Program-made: the position numbers and the translations under genes
Notes under the pieces: generated by a model
What the model was told of the DNA's origin: nothing
Seen by the model: the letters and a program-made list of their open reading frames with translations, nothing else
Databases searched by the model: none
Assembly: GCA_964630755.1 (NCBI GenBank)
Contig: CAZVYS010000001.1
Coordinates: forward strand, 25,893 to 89,892
Direction: 5' to 3'
From: an uncultured Pseudomonadales bacterium
Lineage (GTDB): Bacteria > Patescibacteriota > Microgenomatia > UBA1400 > CG1-02-47-37
DNA length: 64,000 nucleotides
Shown: positions 3,258-63,174 of the stretch, one piece after another
Layout of the letters: each line of letters starts with the position of its first letter
Numbering within the stretch: position 1 is the first letter of the stretch

Positions 3258-3290
3258 ATAAGGGTATTTTATAATAAAATAGACAATAAT

Positions 3291-3359
3291 GCCGGATAGT
3301 AAAATGGCATTACAATTGGTTCTGGACCAATTATTCTAGGTTCGAGTCCTAGTCCGGCA
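3291..3359 (+). tRNA. tRNA, probable tRNA-Gln (anticodon CTG)
   Basis: Cloverleaf: acceptor GCCGGAT / (G)TCCGGC with discriminator A; D-arm GTAA-AATGGCA-TTAC containing GG; anticodon stem ATTGG/CCAAT with loop TTCTGGA (U33, anticodon CUG); short variable loop; T-arm CTAGG-TTCGAGT-CCTAG. The isotype is less certain than the tRNA call itself. Confidence 0.5.
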
Positions 3360-3373
3360 ACAGATCAGAAAAG

Positions 3374-4558
3374 TTATTTAAGTTGTTTTTTGGTGTAGAT
3401 CCAGATTCCGCCCAGGCCTGAAAGCAAAGCTATAAGGCTAACAAAGGCTCCGACTCCAGGAATAAGTTTTAGAAGATAAAGAGCTAGTAAGCCTAAAGAG
3501 AAAGTGACTTGAGGGCTGACTTTTTTCCAGTTTAAATACTTATCAAGAGTGAGGCCAATGGCCATGGCAGTAAATAATTTAGCTAAGCTAAGCTCAATAA
3601 TAAACACCATTGCTAAAATGGCGGCTAAAGGAAAACCTACTCCAGTAATGGCTAATAGCATTAACGCAGGAAAGGTTAATATGACTAAAACTAGTCCCCA
3701 ACCAAGACTTGATAGAAATTTTGATTTAATGTTACCGGCAATAGCTAGGGTTGGTTTTTTTAGTAACCAAAGTAAGACTAAGCCAACAATCAAACTAGAG
3801 AAAAAAGATATTACCTTAAATGCATACTTAGCATTAGACAAATTCTTGTTAAGATTCATTTTGAATTGCTTGTTATTCCATTCGTTTGACTTTGGAGTAT
3901 GGCGTTTTGTTTCACCTAAAATAACAGCCTGATCATCGATCTGAAGATCTTTTTCGGTAGCGTAGGTTAGGTTGCCATTAATAACTGTTTTGGGGCCAAA
4001 ACTTACATCTTCACCACCAATATAGGCTTCGCCGCCAACTGGAGCGTTGTGTTTAAAGTTACCGGCACCAACCATAAGGTTTCTTAAGACTGGAGCTTGA
4101 TTATCAAGCATTCCTGTGCCTGCCAGTAGAGAACCATTTATCTTAGATTGATCATCAACTTTAATAGAACCTGCGCCTACAAGCATGCCGTCACCAATAG
4201 TAGAATCTGTAACAGTTAAATCACCTGCACCAACGACTAAATCATCACCAATTTGACCGTTAATATAGACTTTTCCAGAACCAACGATTAGATCGCCGGT
4301 AATGCTGCCAGAAAAATTAACAACGCCGGCACCAACATAAACATCGCCATCAATAGTGCCAAAGATGTCGACTGTGTCGGCGGCAAGAAATAGATCGTCG
4401 GTGATAACCTCAGATTTTTCGATAACAATGCTGCCTTCGCCTTCTTTTTTAAGAATAACTTTTGCCTGAGTAGTAGAGGCAAAAATAAATAGACTGATAA
4501 ATAGAATAAGAATAATTTTTAGTTTTTTCATATAGATAAAATATACTCTATTTTCCAA
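3374..4558 (-). CDS. membrane protein with an N-terminal signal peptide, Gly-rich beta-helical (bactofilin-like) repeats and a C-terminal four-helix transmembrane domain
   Basis: Repeats of G-x-I/V-x-G-D-L-x-V-G-A-G (GDLIVGSGKVYINGQIGDDLVVGAGDLTV...) followed by about four hydrophobic helices. The likelier start is MKKLKIILILF. Confidence 0.35.
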   Translation of the reverse strand: MENRVYFIYMKKLKIILILFISLFIFASTTQAKVILKKEGEGSIVIEKSEVITDDLFLAADTVDIFGTIDGDVYVGAGVVNFSGSITGDLIVGSGKVYINGQIGDDLVVGAGDLTVTDSTIGDGMLVGAGSIKVDDQSKINGSLLAGTGMLDNQAPVLRNLMVGAGNFKHNAPVGGEAYIGGEDVSFGPKTVINGNLTYATEKDLQIDDQAVILGETKRHTPKSNEWNNKQFKMNLNKNLSNAKYAFKVISFFSSLIVGLVLLWLLKKPTLAIAGNIKSKFLSSLGWGLVLVILTFPALMLLAITGVGFPLAAILAMVFIIELSLAKLFTAMAIGLTLDKYLNWKKVSPQVTFSLGLLALYLLKLIPGVGAFVSLIALLSGLGGIWIYTKKQLK

Positions 4559-18768: not shown

Positions 18769-18887
18769 AAAAACATTTTATTTAACCGCCTTATTATTAC
18801 GGACCGAATTGAGTCTATCCTTTTTGGAATTCTCAGCAACTTAGGTCGGGAGGCAGTTAAGTAAAGTTTTAATAAATAAATTACTAA

Positions 18888-18913
18888 GCACCTCCCACTC
18901 GGGAGGTTTTTTT
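18888..18913 (+). terminator. Rho-independent terminator (CCTCCC-ACTC-GGGAGG followed by T7) directly upstream of the small ORF's ribosome-binding site
   Basis: A 6-bp GC stem plus TTTTTTT. The identical GGGAGG at 18848-18853 could form an alternative antiterminator pairing with CCTCCC. Confidence 0.6.
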
Positions 18914-18939
18914 ATGCACCAAAGGGGGTGAAAGAAAAT

Positions 18940-19128
18940 ATGAAAAATGTAGAATCGAGAACAAAAATTTCTCCATATACGTTTAATGGAGTTGAATTTC
19001 GTGATCCTGGGAATGGCCCTTTAGATCCAGGTGATGGAGGAAGTGACGAGGGCCCAATCTCTCCAGGTGATACAGGTGCACCAGGTGTCGTATATCAAAC
19101 GGAGCGTGCTTCTCAAGCTCGTAATTAA
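18940..19128 (+). CDS. small hypothetical protein (63 aa) with a Gly/Pro/Asp-rich repetitive tail
   Basis: Strong Shine-Dalgarno AAAGGGGGTG 9 nt upstream of the ATG. Internal peptide repeat GPLDPGDGG / GPISPGDTG. The track start is a GTG at 18928. No signal peptide. Confidence 0.35.
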   Translation: MKNVESRTKISPYTFNGVEFRDPGNGPLDPGDGGSDEGPISPGDTGAPGVVYQTERASQARN

Positions 19129-19144
19129 TACTTAAATATATACT

Positions 19145-19171
19145 AGCCTACGAGGAGAGTCCTTGTAGGCT
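19145..19171. repeat. palindromic element copy (AGCCTACGAGGAGAGTCCTTGTAGGCT) abutting the recJ stop codon
   Basis: Inverted repeat with a GGAGAGTCC core; overlaps the TAA of recJ (19171-19173). Confidence 0.6.
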
Positions 19172-32579: not shown

Positions 32580-33284
32580 TTATTTTGCCTTTTGTTGTTT
32601 TTGATACCAATCCATTAATAGTTTTGAAACTAGATCTTTAGCGCCTAAGCCAATGCTTAGACCAATGCCAAGAGTTAAAGTAGCGATTACTCCAATAAAT
32701 AAAGTATTAATTAGACTTTGAGCAATACCAAGTTCGTTAATAGCGGCAAGGCTGGTAACGATAACTACTAAATAACTAGCAATTTTGCTTAATAGCCGAC
32801 TGGTTCTTTTATCAACTTGATTAACAGTGCCTTTAACTAAGTTTTCAACTAAACCGGCTAATAATACTCCAACAGATAAGACCAATACAGCTGAAATTAT
32901 GTTGGGTAAATATCCTAGCAGCGAACTTAAAACACCAGAAACGGTAGTTAAGCCTAAAACGTTAGCCGCTGCCATAAAGAAAACTATGATTACTAACCAA
33001 CGGACTATTTGACCGATAAATTCTTCAGCTTTAACTCGGACTTCAGCTTTTTTGAGATATGAATCTAAACCACCTTTTCTTAGTAACTTATCTAACTTAA
33101 TAGCGCTTAAGATTTTAACAATTAAAGCTTTGCTCCATTTTGCTAAAACTAGTCCAAAAAAGAAAATAACAAGAGCTCCTAAGAAACTGGGAAGAAAACC
33201 AAAAAAACCGCTGAGGACATTAGCGCCAGCAATTAAAACGGCTTCTTGCCAGTTCGAAACGGCTCCAAATGAATATGAGGGCAT
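32580..33284 (-). CDS. polytopic membrane protein with conserved transmembrane-helix repeats (MscS N-terminal-like)
   Basis: Multiple hydrophobic helices; repeated Gly-rich transmembrane segments. Shine-Dalgarno GGAGGTG upstream. Confidence 0.3.
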   Translation of the reverse strand: MPSYSFGAVSNWQEAVLIAGANVLSGFFGFLPSFLGALVIFFFGLVLAKWSKALIVKILSAIKLDKLLRKGGLDSYLKKAEVRVKAEEFIGQIVRWLVIIVFFMAAANVLGLTTVSGVLSSLLGYLPNIISAVLVLSVGVLLAGLVENLVKGTVNQVDKRTSRLLSKIASYLVVIVTSLAAINELGIAQSLINTLFIGVIATLTLGIGLSIGLGAKDLVSKLLMDWYQKQQKAK

Positions 33285-33358
33285 ATTATTTCACCTCCCT
33301 TCTATTAGTTTTATTATGTAAAGAGGAGGCCAAGAAGTCAAATGAAGTTGATTTTTCT

Positions 33359-33367
33359 TGGTATAAT
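33359..33367 (+). promoter_or_regulatory. extended -10 promoter (TGGTATAAT) for rnpB
   Basis: TGnTATAAT match, 6-7 nt upstream of the predicted RNase P RNA 5' end. Confidence 0.45.
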
Positions 33368-33373
33368 ATAAGG

Positions 33374-33758
33374 GCTAGGAAGTGTGGTGATGCTCCGATG
33401 TAACTTCGGAGAGGAAAGTCCAGACTGCAGAAAGCAGAGTGTCCCGATATAACGTCGGGAGGAAGGAGCCGCGCTTTAGGGTTCTTTGACAGTGAAGCCA
33501 CAGAGACGAGATCTCCGATGACCTAATCGGTAACGGAGATGTGAAACGTTTAATATCACAGTTGGTATTGAAATCACTCCGATGTTACATCGGAGGGTGG
33601 TAATTCTCCTTGCAGCAACTTCCGAATGATCCCTCACTAGGTGCTTTCACGAGCCTGCCAACAGGCAGACAGGGATCAAAGTTTGAAGGCCTAGATAGAT
33701 GTCACCTCAATCCTGATTAAATCAGGACGAGACAAAATCTGGCTTACAGCTTCCTAGC
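33374..33758 (+). ncRNA. rnpB: RNase P RNA (bacterial type A-like)
   Basis: P4 core GAGGAAAGUCC; ...CAGUGAAGCCACAGAGA... (the P9/P10 AGUGNAACAGARA region); GGUAACGGAGAUGUGAAACG (compare GGUAAGGGUGAAAGGGUG); a 9-bp P1 between GCUAGGAAG (33374-33382) and CUUCCUAGC (33750-33758). Length is 385 nt in a 460-nt non-coding gap. Confidence 0.6.
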
Positions 33759-34760
33759 AAACAAAAGCACTCTTTTTAGAGTGTTTTTGTTTATTATTAT
33801 GGAAATCAACAACAAGGCAGCAAAACTAATAAACACTGGCGTTAACGGCACCTCTGATAAATCAAAGTTGGCTAGATGAACTAAAACTGGATGAGATAAG
33901 TAAATTAAATATGAATGTTTTCCAAACCAGGAAATAATCTTATTATTTAAAGATTTTATTTGTGAATTCAGGAAAAATGAAATAAAACCAAACGAGTATA
34001 ATAACTGAGGTATTTTGGCAAATCGAATAGCTAGAACAATGTTTTTTGAAAATTGCAAATACTGATGAGTGTCAATAATTGAAAGAATTAAACCGATAAT
34101 TAGTAGTAGTAAGCTGATTTTTTTTGAGATAAAAGACTTTACTCTGGCAAGATAAATTCCAAGAATAAAATAAAAGATCCAGGTTAGAAAAATTGTGTTT
34201 TGGATTTGATCTGAAGGTGGATTTTGAGAAAAAGAAAAATAACTATATAAGCCAAGTTGAGCAATTAAACTGGCCATTAAAGTTAATTTTAACTTAGATA
34301 GTGATAGTTTATGGATAAAAGGAAAGAGTAAATATAACTGCAAGATAACAGAGACAAAATAGAGATGATAATCAGCCCAACCTAATAGCAATATTTTCCA
34401 AACAGGACCTGTTTCAAGAACTTTCCACCAAGGGTCAATATATTCTGATAAAAAAAGGTAATAAGCTGACCAAATTAAGTATAAGGGCAATATTTTAGTA
34501 AGACGGGATTGGTAGAACTTTAATAGTTTAATTTTTTGGTTTAAATATTTTAAACTTAATCCGAAGCCTGAAAGAAAAATAAAGATTGGAACACAGAAAC
34601 GTAAAGCTTGATTAACTGAAATAAAAAGTAAATTGGTCGGATAGGTAAAAACAGCTTGAGGGGGTACAAAGGTAAGTAAATGAAGGCCAATAACAGCCAA
34701 GATGGCTAAGCCTTTTAACTGAAGTGAAATATCCTTATCTTTATTGAGAATAGTTGACAT
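33744..34760 (-). CDS. acyltransferase family 3 (OafA-like) integral membrane protein
   Basis: About 10 transmembrane helices. The N-terminal LKGLAILAVIGLHL is typical of Acyl_transf_3. Confidence 0.5.
   Translation of the reverse strand: MSTILNKDKDISLQLKGLAILAVIGLHLLTFVPPQAVFTYPTNLLFISVNQALRFCVPIFIFLSGFGLSLKYLNQKIKLLKFYQSRLTKILPLYLIWSAYYLFLSEYIDPWWKVLETGPVWKILLLGWADYHLYFVSVILQLYLLFPFIHKLSLSKLKLTLMASLIAQLGLYSYFSFSQNPPSDQIQNTIFLTWIFYFILGIYLARVKSFISKKISLLLLIIGLILSIIDTHQYLQFSKNIVLAIRFAKIPQLLYSFGFISFFLNSQIKSLNNKIISWFGKHSYLIYLSHPVLVHLANFDLSEVPLTPVFISFAALLLISIIINKNTLKRVLLFARKL
33767..33793 (+). terminator. Rho-independent terminator (GCACTC-TTTTTA-GAGTG followed by TTTTTGTTT) after rnpB
   Basis: Stem-loop plus T-run on the + strand. 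Overlaps the 3' end of the convergent acyltransferase CDS. Confidence 0.5.
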
Positions 34761-44040: not shown

Positions 44041-44228
44041 ATATTATCCTTTTATGATATTTAGCAGATCCGATGTAGCTTCGGATAACTACAACTATAT
44101 TTAATGAATTGGGGTAAACAGCGAGATTACTCGCCCATTGAAGAGCTTGAGGTATTTATAAAATTAGGTTGATATAACAACATTAAATTTAACAATATCA
44201 CTATTTATCCAATACTAGTATTTTACGC

Positions 44229-46462: not shown

Positions 46463-46533
46463 TTAATAAAAACGGGGATTAGTTTAATGGTAGAATACGC
46501 GGCTGGGGGTCGTGTGGCTTGAGTTCGATTCTC
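46463..46533 (+). tRNA. tRNA-Pro (anticodon GGG)
   Basis: Acceptor CGGGGAT/ATCCCCG with the C1:G72 pair and A73 (ProRS identity). D-loop AATGGTA (G18G19). Anticodon loop CUGGGGG (U33, GGG, G37). T-arm TTGAG-TTCGATT-CTCAA. Followed by a hairpin and TTCTTT. Confidence 0.75.
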
Positions 46534-46546
46534 AAATCCCCGACAT

Positions 46547-63127: not shown

Positions 63128-63174
63128 ATTAGATTGAGCAGGTCCGACGTCACGTCGGACAACTGCCGCTATAT

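Follow-up and report, generated by a model that had tools for sequence, protein, structure and literature searches.

The RNA described here lies in the longest ORF-free stretch (459 nt) of the window, by which we mean the whole 64-kb stretch of DNA that was analysed. It is flanked by an MscS-like gene on the minus strand (32580..33284) and by a convergent gene for a protein of the acyltransferase-3 family. The initial annotation had called this stretch the only long non-coding gap. It is indeed the longest, but three other gaps of at least 400 nt were found, two of which contain small genes that, going by translation only, resemble those for ribosomal proteins and IF-1, and the third of which (18769-19170) contains just one uncharacterised 66-aa ORF. 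The genes and signals at the locus are as follows.

33313..33341, minus strand: divergent sigma-70-like promoter, TTGACT-17-CATAAT (promoter scan, 10/12 matches)
33359..33367, plus strand: predicted extended -10 promoter of rnpB, TGGTATAAT (TGnTATAAT invariant in 7/7 aligned loci)
33374..33758, plus strand: rnpB, predicted mature RNA of bacterial type-A RNase P, about 385 nt long; the alignment to RF00010 extends to 33762
33744..34760, minus strand: acyltransferase-3 family CDS, 338 aa (PF01757, E = 1.9e-36, with the domain reaching residue 323 of 338)
33759..33800, plus strand: predicted intrinsic terminator of rnpB, a hairpin at 33759-33792 with a U-rich tail (-18.3 kcal/mol, z = -8.4)

An RNase P RNA with type-A hallmarks had been proposed for this gap from the sequence, together with a cmsearch using the RNase P models. 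In the Infernal search, RF00010 matched the rnpB locus over its full length (model positions 1-367) with 94.7 bits and an E-value of 1.4e-29, which is clearly a significant match. Type A was the best match within the RNase P clan, the overlapping weaker clan matches being discarded, and after hand mapping of the structure no sequence was left over at the positions of the type-B elements P5.1, P10.1 and P15.1. Scanning the window with Rfam at the gathering threshold, which is the default, returned no RNase P match. The gathering threshold of RF00010 is 100 bits, and the window rnpB falls 5 bits short of it. The silence of the default scan is thus a threshold effect and not a sign that the RNA is absent, and the shortfall does not reflect a lack of significance. 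The orthologues lie on both sides of the same threshold, with scores of 91.4-103.2 bits. The conserved core (CR-I to CR-V) is intact, being represented by GAGGAAAGUCC, CCACAGAGA, GUGAAA, GCAGCAA, CUAGAU and ACAAAAUCUGGCUUA. These strings occupy upper-case consensus positions of the model with high posterior probability, and they do not change among the relatives. The sequence features on which the initial annotation was based were all recovered, either in place or a few bases away; GAGGAAAGUCC lies at 33411-33421, CAGUGAAGCCACAGAGA at 33490-33506 and GGUAACGGAGAUGUGAAACG at 33529-33548.

The consensus fold obtained with RNAalifold from eight sequences recovered P1, P2, P3, P13 and P14, but it mispaired the core by joining the 5' strand of P4 to a P15 strand. 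We therefore replaced this fold by a canonical structure that was mapped by hand, and which contains the following elements, all on the plus strand.

33393..33411: P3 hairpin, CUCCGAUGUAACUUCGGAG, first copy of the hairpin motif discussed below; its stem covaries among the orthologues
33416..33424: P4 5' strand, AAG-U-CCAGA with U33419 bulged, which pairs with 33738-33745 (UCUGGCUU) in the pseudoknot of the catalytic core
33431..33436: 5' strand of the P6 pseudoknot, AAAGCA, which pairs with 33642-33647 (UGCUUU); G-C is replaced by A-U in 3 of 8 sequences
33443..33459: P8 hairpin, CCCGAUAUAACGUCGGG, second motif copy; its UAAC loop is the family consensus for P8
33511..33540: P12, in which AUCUCCG...CGGAGAU encloses an ACC/GGU helix; an alternative pairing, CCGAU...AUCGG, lies within P12
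33573..33598: P14, distal part CUCCGAUGUUACAUCGGAG, third motif copy; eight P14 pairs are altered on both sides
33655..33668: P17 hairpin, CCUGCC-AACA-GGCAG, within a 20-nt insertion that is missing from all seven close orthologues
33689..33699: site of P18, where only 11 nt (GCCUAGAUAGA) separate the 3' strands of P15 and P2; P18 is absent
33711..33727: P19 hairpin, UCCUGA-UUAAA-UCAGGA, limited to the window, L007, L012 and L015
33738..33746: P4 3' strand and a conserved unpaired A (UCUGGCUU-A); GGCTTA is unchanged in 12 sequences

The terminal helix that had been proposed between 33374-33382 and 33750-33758 is present with its 9 bp, and extends to 10 bp if U33383-G33749 is counted. In the P4 pseudoknot, formed by the GGAAAGUCC and GGCUUA strands, 8/8 pairs are standard in the hand mapping and 100% of the cells are paired in the eight sequences. 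Among the type-A peripheral elements, P6, P13, P14, P16 and P17 are present and covary where they are variable, while P18 is missing: the cmscan alignment sets a 24-nt segment of the model against 0 nt of the window. The sister Gottesmanbacteria have kept the P18 hairpin, and the loss therefore falls inside the Microgenomates. Loop L15 reads AAAGUUU (33678-33684) and thus carries AGU instead of GGU, which among the relatives occurs in L007, L008 and L015 only. The weakened pairing with the tRNA 3'-CCA that this implies is consistent with the lack of an encoded CCA in both tRNA genes of the window. The position of the Rfam score just under the cut-off results from the loss of P18, the extra P17 and P19, and the AGU in L15.

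The same RNA occupies the syntenic position in six to seven Beckwithbacteria-like genomes and is found in further Microgenomates genomes; promoter and RNA together are conserved in about ten genomes, where the helices are maintained by compensatory changes. A scan of the genome collection with the invariant 21-mer GGAAAGTCCAGACTGCAGAAA returned seven loci only. Locus L019 of a member of the Balneolaceae was rejected as an RNase P locus, the 21-mer there being a chance match inside an ORF of 763 aa, with no RNase P present. In the alignment of eight sequences, the canonical type-A structure with P4 and P6 is paired in 92% of 858 cells, compared to 34-47% in slid controls. Changes on both sides of a pair were seen in 37 of 120 pairs, against a mean of 20.9 after shuffling, and none of the 500 shuffles reached this number. 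Covariation was observed in P6 (G-C to A-U) and also in P3, P7, P13 and P14. Lower pairing of 72-78% in P8, P9 and P12 is an artefact of the MAFFT alignment, which misaligned these helices in distant members owing to indels. The initial annotation had looked to covariation in P1 and P4 as support for these pairings; they are invariant within the close clade, and covariation in them was found only against distant sequences and the model consensus. Specifically, P1 is compensated at three to four pairs relative to the Gottesmanbacteria sequences, and P4 is compensated relative to the family consensus (CCAGA/UCUGG versus CCGGG/CCCGG).

Compared to the type-A RNase P RNAs (RF00010, with E. coli M1 RNA and the Thermotoga maritima P RNA), the window rnpB shares P1-P17, the P4/P6 pseudoknots and P13/P14, as well as the core strings GAGGAAAGUCC, ACAGAGA, GUGAAA, AGCAA, CUAGAU and ACAAAAUCUGGCUUA. 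It differs from them in having P19 and no P18, in the AGU of L15, and in L9, which is a 9-nt loop and not a GNRA tetraloop. RNase P RNAs of CPR bacteria that score under the Rfam cut-off, miss helices and have often lost GGU are already described by Lui, Nielsen & Arkin 2021 (PMC8172020), where the L15 GGU is missing in 23 of 35 CPR RNAs and is dispensable where the tRNA genes lack CCA. Like these RNAs, the window rnpB is found only at a lowered RF00010 threshold and shows loss of a peripheral helix and of the CCA-binding GGU; unlike them, it is only mildly diverged, with P12, P13, P14, P16 and P17 all present. The passages of that paper that were consulted describe no overlap between a CPR RNase P RNA and a protein gene. 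For the Aquificales and for Chlorobium, natural RNase P RNAs that have lost P18 are cited in PMC8457005 (from Haas et al. 1994 and Marszalkowski et al. 2006). As in these RNAs, the window rnpB is otherwise type A and has lost both P18 and the interdomain contact between L18 and P8, but the lineages are unrelated and the loss of P18 in the window rnpB is therefore independent.

As to the expression signals, the extended -10 element had been placed at the right distance from the RNA: its TATAAT ends 6 nt 5' of G33374, and this spacing suggests that transcription of rnpB probably starts at or beside the mature 5' end. The conserved AGTCAA block further upstream is due to the divergent minus-strand promoter that sits there, and which probably serves the MscS-like gene; GTCAA is the same in all aligned orthologues. 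The intrinsic terminator that had been annotated at 33767-33793 was found as the hairpin at 33759-33792, with UUUUUGUUU as its 3' arm followed by AUUAUUAU. This hairpin was detected as a terminator on both strands, its terminator-like appearance on the minus strand being caused by the A-rich 5' flank. If it were active on that strand, the acyltransferase mRNA would end 5' of its stop codon, an outcome for which a passive overlap of the two genes does not account. Equivalent hairpins are present in L007-L010, and none was found at the rnpB loci of L011, L012 and L015. The rnpB transcript would probably end at this hairpin, about 35 nt beyond P1, and the extension would then be trimmed. For the E. 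coli M1 RNA, a terminator-bearing 3' extension is likewise trimmed off, and the promoter lets transcription begin at the mature 5' end. With RnpA as its protein partner, the window rnpB would remove the 5' leaders from pre-tRNAs, as its sequence, structure and family indicate.

The observation in the initial annotation that the 3' strand of P1 and the terminator lie inside the last codons of the acyltransferase gene was borne out: the stop codon is at 33744-33746, and the overlap is conserved. The last five codons and the stop codon (33744-33761) are antisense to the 3' strands of P4 and P1, and about 11 more codons are antisense to the terminator. The TAA stop is the complement of U33744-U33745-A33746, the conserved UUA that ends the 3' strand of P4, and P1 read in antisense gives the last acyltransferase residues (A-R-K-x). 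This ARK-x tail is confined to the syntenic clade. The residues before it, which are the antisense of the terminator, follow the terminator in their variation, in length as well as in sequence. In seven genomes the overlap between the 3' end of the RF00010 match and the CDS measures exactly 19 nt, with the stop codon inside GGCUUA. In the mechanism that we propose, an acyltransferase ORF without a stop codon of its own after the conserved domain would read antisense through the terminator and the 3' strand of P1, and would end at the TAA opposite the invariant UUA of P4.

Two other interpretations of the locus were considered. One is that the RNA is a decaying, non-functional pseudogene, the activity being supplied by another copy or by a protein-only enzyme. 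A score under the gathering threshold, the missing P18 and the degraded GGU of L15 could be taken in this sense, but functional RNase P RNAs without P18 or without GGU exist in nature (PMC8457005, PMC8172020), and the universally conserved core sequences are all intact. Conservation of promoter and RNA in about ten genomes, with helices preserved by compensatory changes, led us to reject this idea, which we consider extremely improbable. The other interpretation is that the overlap is functional and couples rnpB to the acyltransferase gene, be it by antisense pairing with the 3' precursor of rnpB, by transcriptional interference, or by non-stop mRNAs that are passed to tmRNA. It would agree with the 19-nt geometry, which is kept in seven genomes with acyltransferases that are 46-70% identical, with the invariance of P1 across the clade, and with a hairpin that is terminator-like on both strands and has a minus-strand U-tract that ends before the stop codon. 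However, the invariant GGCUUA and P1 by themselves account for the conserved geometry, and the terminator-encoded tail residues are not conserved. The arrangement also varies: in L015 the gene is in another frame, takes a TAG stop from the CUA of P1 and overlaps by about 6 nt only, the terminator hairpin is missing in L011, L012 and L015, and the Gottesmanbacteria have no acyltransferase gene at the locus and hence no overlap. A functional coupling thus appears very unlikely. Taken together, the sequence and comparative data indicate that 33374-33758 on the plus strand is almost certainly the catalytic RNA of RNase P (rnpB, type A) of a Beckwithbacteria-like member of the Microgenomates (CPR/Patescibacteria), and suggest that its overlap with the acyltransferase gene is a passive result of genome compaction. 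This rnpB is an ordinary housekeeping gene, slightly diverged, and a further example of a known RNA class.

A separate matter is the hairpin motif CCGA-N7-UCGG, which had been singled out as an unusual repeat. The repeat is real and enriched in the window; the orthologues, however, have not kept its sequence. Within rnpB the motif hairpins start at 33395, 33444 and 33579. Over both strands of the window, CCGATNTNNCNTCGG occurs five times (the 33579 hairpin being counted on each strand) against 0.00 expected, and CCGA-N7-TCGG occurs five times against 0.14 expected. The fourth copy, which had been reported at 44070-44088 in the spacer between rny and recX, was found at 44070-44084. Two occurrences had been overlooked, namely a CCGAU...AUCGG variant in P12 (33515-33530) and the fifth copy, which lies at 63144-63158. 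The two hairpins outside RNase P are the following, and these leader copies of rny and rplV have the same flanks.

44064..44092, minus strand: hairpin in the recX-rny spacer, in gene sense GUAG-UU-AUCCGA...UCGGAU-C-UGC
63137..63167, minus strand: fifth copy of the hairpin, between rpsS and rplV, GCAG-UU-GUCCGACG...CGUCGGAC-CUGC (-18.9 kcal/mol, z = -3.5)

It is conceivable that P3, P8, P14 and the two leader hairpins are copies of one module, either a site for an RNA-binding factor or an insertable palindrome. Besides the enrichment in the window, this would be in line with the density of copies, rnpB genes having seven in 4.5 kb and the other CPR DNA three, all intergenic, in 143 kb, and with the shared flanks of the leader copies. 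In L040 and L041, the outer stem of these leader copies shows covariation. Moreover, L042 has a copy with 13 of 15 positions identical elsewhere in the same spacer and in the opposite orientation, and the likeness of P8 to P14 is higher within than between genomes (permutation p of about 0.003, for eight sequences and with phylogeny ignored). Against this, type-A RNase P RNAs all have P3, P8 and P14 as ancestral helices, loops of the UAAC type in P8 and P14 belong to the family consensus, and the similarities of P3 to P14 and of P3 to P8 are not significant. The orthologues retain the hairpins and not their sequence, and in L011 and L015 the three hairpins are unlike each other. A GC-rich stem of the CCGA/UCGG type is an obvious choice for a stable hairpin in a genome of 35.5% GC. 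A metagenome scan with the extended motif GTTRTCCGA-N7-TCGGAYCTGC gave essentially chance matches, 17 of 20 being in unrelated contigs of 60-72% GC, and showed no sign of a widespread element. With respect to REP-like dispersed palindromes, there are two extragenic, flank-sharing copies in 64 kb and one variant in L042, and no related metagenome copies were found. An Rfam scan of the recX-rny spacer by E-value returned nothing meaningful, and folding the conserved block of the rny leader to a consensus gave one small hairpin with zero compensatory changes. A common origin or common binding factor for the five hairpins is therefore unlikely, and we regard it as very doubtful that CCGA-YGUARCY-UCGG is a reusable Beckwithbacteria-like module, as a mini-palindrome or as the target of a shared factor, on P3, P8, P14 and the rny and rplV leaders. 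If it were, the RNase P RNA would be linked to a lineage-specific RNA-processing network.

For the RNase P family as such, the present rnpB leaves our understanding unchanged, and the overlap is tidy but not surprising. The window rnpB and about half of its close relatives score just under the gathering score of RF00010, and standard annotation of CPR genomes will therefore report the RNase P RNA as missing, a problem that is already documented (PMC8172020). The rnpB sequences gathered here could help to retrain RF00010. The biological value is small: the locus dates the loss of P18 to within the Microgenomates and documents P17, P19 and, in one relative, P12 as helices gained and lost in particular lineages. 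Finally, it provides a clean example of genome compaction, in which an invariant triplet of the ribozyme core supplies a protein gene with its stop codon, and the C-terminal tail of the protein is the antisense of P1 and the terminator.

A sensitive Rfam scan limited to 33250-33850 identified 33374-33762 as bacterial RNase P class A (RF00010), matched over its full length (94.7 bits, E = 1.4e-29, model positions 1-367), as expected from the initial annotation, which had placed an RNase P RNA here on the basis of short hallmarks. These hallmarks were all present where it had located them, namely GAGGAAAGUCC (33411-33421), the CAGUGAAGCCACAGAGA block, GGUAACGGAGAUGUGAAACG, the terminal helix 33374-33382 / 33750-33758, TGGTATAAT (33359-33367) and a terminator hairpin. 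At default thresholds, a scan of the whole window reported two tRNAs alone, because the RF00010 score is 5 bits below the curated gathering score of 100 bits. The gap had also been described as the only long non-coding one; 33285-33743 is indeed the longest stretch of the window in which no ORF reaches 90 aa, but other gaps of about 400 nt exist. Two of these contain small genes that, judged by translation, resemble ribosomal proteins and IF-1. The remaining one, 18769-19170 (402 nt), likewise has no ORF of that length; its sole ORF (18928-19128, +; 66 aa, GTG start) is G/P/D-rich and uncharacterised, and matches to RNA families were absent there at the Rfam gathering threshold.

Metagenome contigs and MAGs, one carrying the label Candidatus Beckwithbacteria, contain orthologues of the flanking acyltransferase (PF01757) that share 46-70% identity with it, and RNase Y homologues indicate the same lineage. 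Gene order is conserved (miaB, miaA, AI-2E transporter, acyltransferase, ~410-460-nt gap, MscS-like gene, bacA). In each of the six orthologous loci, RF00010 matches the gap at full length, on the opposite strand to the acyltransferase (91.4-103.2 bits; three above the threshold and three below). Searching genomes with an invariant 21-mer brought in five further Microgenomates RNase P RNAs, Gottesmanbacteria among them. One exact match to this 21-nt P4/P5 string, at 2255-2275 of a Balneolaceae locus (CP051242.1), was rejected: it lies inside a 763-aa ORF with RNase P RNA absent, and is a chance occurrence in a 596-Gb collection.

The canonical type-A helices were mapped by hand on the window and projected onto an alignment of eight sequences. 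Standard pairs occupied 92.0% of 858 cells, compared to 34-47% when the 3' partners were slid by 1-3 columns, and both sides had changed in 37 of the 120 pairs (shuffle mean 20.9; 37 was reached in 0 of 500 shuffles). Covariation was extensive in P7, P3, P13 and P14, and in three sequences A-U replaces G-C in the P6 pseudoknot (33431-36 with 33642-47). Helices P1, P4, P5, P11 and P15 are invariant within the clade and are for that reason uninformative there. Comparison with Gottesmanbacteria shows compensatory changes at several P1 pairs (GCUAGGAAG/CUUCCUAGC versus UGCGGAAG/CUUCCGCA and UGCGGAGG/CCUCCGCA), and P4 (AAG-U-CCAGA paired to UCUGGCUU) shows them relative to the family consensus CCGGG/CCCGG. 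The initial annotation had held that an insignificant Infernal match, together with P1/P4 pairing lacking covariation support, would refute RNase P; given the significant RF00010 match and the P1 and P4 compensation, neither was the case.

The RNA departs from the type-A consensus at several points. P18 is missing, only 11 nt separating P15 from P2 and a 24-nt model segment aligning to nothing, whereas the Gottesmanbacteria RNAs retain it; natural P18 loss is described for Aquificales and Chlorobium (PMC8457005). P17 (33655-33668) is formed by a 20-nt insertion found in the window alone among close relatives, P19 (33711-33727) occurs in only four of the eight sequences, and the L9 loop is 9 nt long. 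The L15 motif that pairs with tRNA CCA reads AGU instead of GGU and is variable among relatives, and neither tRNA gene of the window, Gln-CUG or Pro-GGG (3290-3361, 46473-46544), encodes a 3' CCA. Both tRNA genes have a TATAAT-like box 10-20 nt upstream, and the leaders that RNase P removes would therefore be short. Lui et al. 2021 (PMC8172020) describe CPR RNase P RNAs that were detected only below Rfam cut-offs and had helices missing, with the L15 motif absent in 23 of 35, and all departures of the window RNA fall inside the range described there. P12 loss, termed highly unusual in the same source, was seen in Candidatus Beckwithbacteria MAG JBDRQW010000070.1 (locus L012, 4170-4200, -; ...CCACAGAGACGAG-CAAU-GUGAAACG...), with P13 and P14 kept. 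In locus L015, a further relative, P3 is enlarged by a ~50-nt insertion (3455-3525), whereas the window's P3 hairpin measures 19 nt.

A repeated hairpin motif had also been noticed. It is real and enriched, CCGA-N7-UCGG occurring five times in the window versus 0.14 expected, but the copy at 63144 had been overlooked and the sequence is not conserved in orthologues.

CCGA-N7-UCGG copies in the window and the neighbouring conserved block
P3, P8 and P14 of the RNase P RNA: one copy each
44064-44092 (-): recX-rny spacer hairpin, copy at 44070
63137-63167 (-): rpsS-rplV spacer hairpin, copy at 63144
44105-44215 (-): conserved recX-rny block (relatives: L040 105-310, L041 798-1006, L042 827-1006, L043 868-1006)

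The three RNase P copies occupy helices common to every type-A RNA, the family consensus itself has UAAC-type loops in P8 and P14, and a variant of the motif lies inside P12. In orthologues the hairpins are kept with covarying stems and a different sequence; in L011 and L015 no resemblance among P3, P8 and P14 was found. Across eight sequences, with phylogeny uncontrolled, P8-P14 similarity was higher within than between genomes (p ~0.003), and P3-P14 and P3-P8 similarity was not significant. The CPR DNA examined contains 7 copies in 4.5 kb of rnpB genes and 3 in the other 143 kb, these 3 all intergenic; a metagenome scan with an extended motif returned essentially chance matches only, in high-GC contigs. 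The hairpins are genuine structural elements; a common function, or a tie of the mRNA-leader copies to RNase P, would be speculative.

On the gene-sense strand the two spacer hairpins share the flanks GYAG-UU-[stem]-C-CUGC, each being built with a 4-bp stem on the outside and an internal UU/C loop (GYAG-UU-RUCCGA...UCGGAY-C-CUGC), and each lies ~12-25 nt upstream of the next start codon. The rny-spacer hairpin is an indel: the window, L040 and L041 have it, and L042 and L043 lack it; where present, its outer stem covaries and its inner stem is completely different. L042 carries a CCGACGTAGCCTCGG hairpin (925-945) that agrees with the 44070 copy in 13 of 15 positions and sits elsewhere in the opposite orientation, within the loop of the conserved rny-leader GCGAG hairpin. 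This arrangement hints that the CCGA/UCGG hairpin may be insertable. The ~110-nt spacer block conserved in five relatives, with its small GCGAG-UAAUC-UCGC hairpin, may correspond to the promoter and leader of rny; an Rfam search of it found no family match, and a consensus comparison across relatives no covariation.

Upstream of rnpB, all seven aligned loci carry an unchanged TGnTATAAT; in the window its TATAAT stops 6 nt short of G33374, a position suggesting that primary and mature 5' ends probably coincide. A predicted divergent promoter (TTGACT-17-CATAAT, 33313-33341, -) lies back to back with it, and the conserved AGTCAA block is best read as the -35 of this putative MscS-like gene promoter. 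The two promoters wholly occupy the 89-nt spacer. Downstream, a 15-bp hairpin (33759-33792; -18.3 kcal/mol, z = -8.4) precedes a U-rich tail and, because its 5' flank is A-rich, scores as a minus-strand terminator also. L011 (1270-1295), L012 (3960-3985) and L015 (3838-3860) lack a separate hairpin and have a run of 6-7 U immediately after the P1 3' strand (CUUCCUAGCAC-UUUUUUU).

The ORF 33744..34760 (-) encodes a protein of 338 aa from the Acyl_transf_3 family, with the Pfam match extending as far as residue 323. Its stop TAA is the complement of U33744-U33745-A33746, in which the two U close the paired part of the P4 3' strand and the A is conserved and unpaired, inside invariant GGCUUA; its C-terminal A-R-K-L is antisense to the P1 3' strand and the ~11 preceding residues to the terminator. 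The overlap proposed earlier recurs, with exactly 19 nt from RNase P model end to stop in the window and all six orthologous loci. The ARK-x terminus is restricted to proteins of the syntenic clade; the preceding residues vary in sequence and length and are absent where the terminator hairpin is (P0010 and P0011, from L011 and L012). In L015 another frame is used, the stop TAG being the complement of CUA within P1, and at the Gottesmanbacteria locus, where the acyltransferase is absent, 4 or 24 nt separate the end of the AI-2E gene from rnpB. The simplest reading is a passive overlap, in which the acyltransferase ORF would continue until invariant RNase P RNA sequence provides a stop, available in two of the three frames. 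Minus-strand termination at the hairpin would leave the acyltransferase mRNA without a stop codon, and is presumably suppressed by translating ribosomes.

The short conserved overlap is best explained by genome compaction. Judged from sequence, the locus is the ordinary essential rnpB of a CPR bacterium, encoding a mildly diverged type-A RNA, and its escape from standard thresholds is a situation already reported for this radiation.
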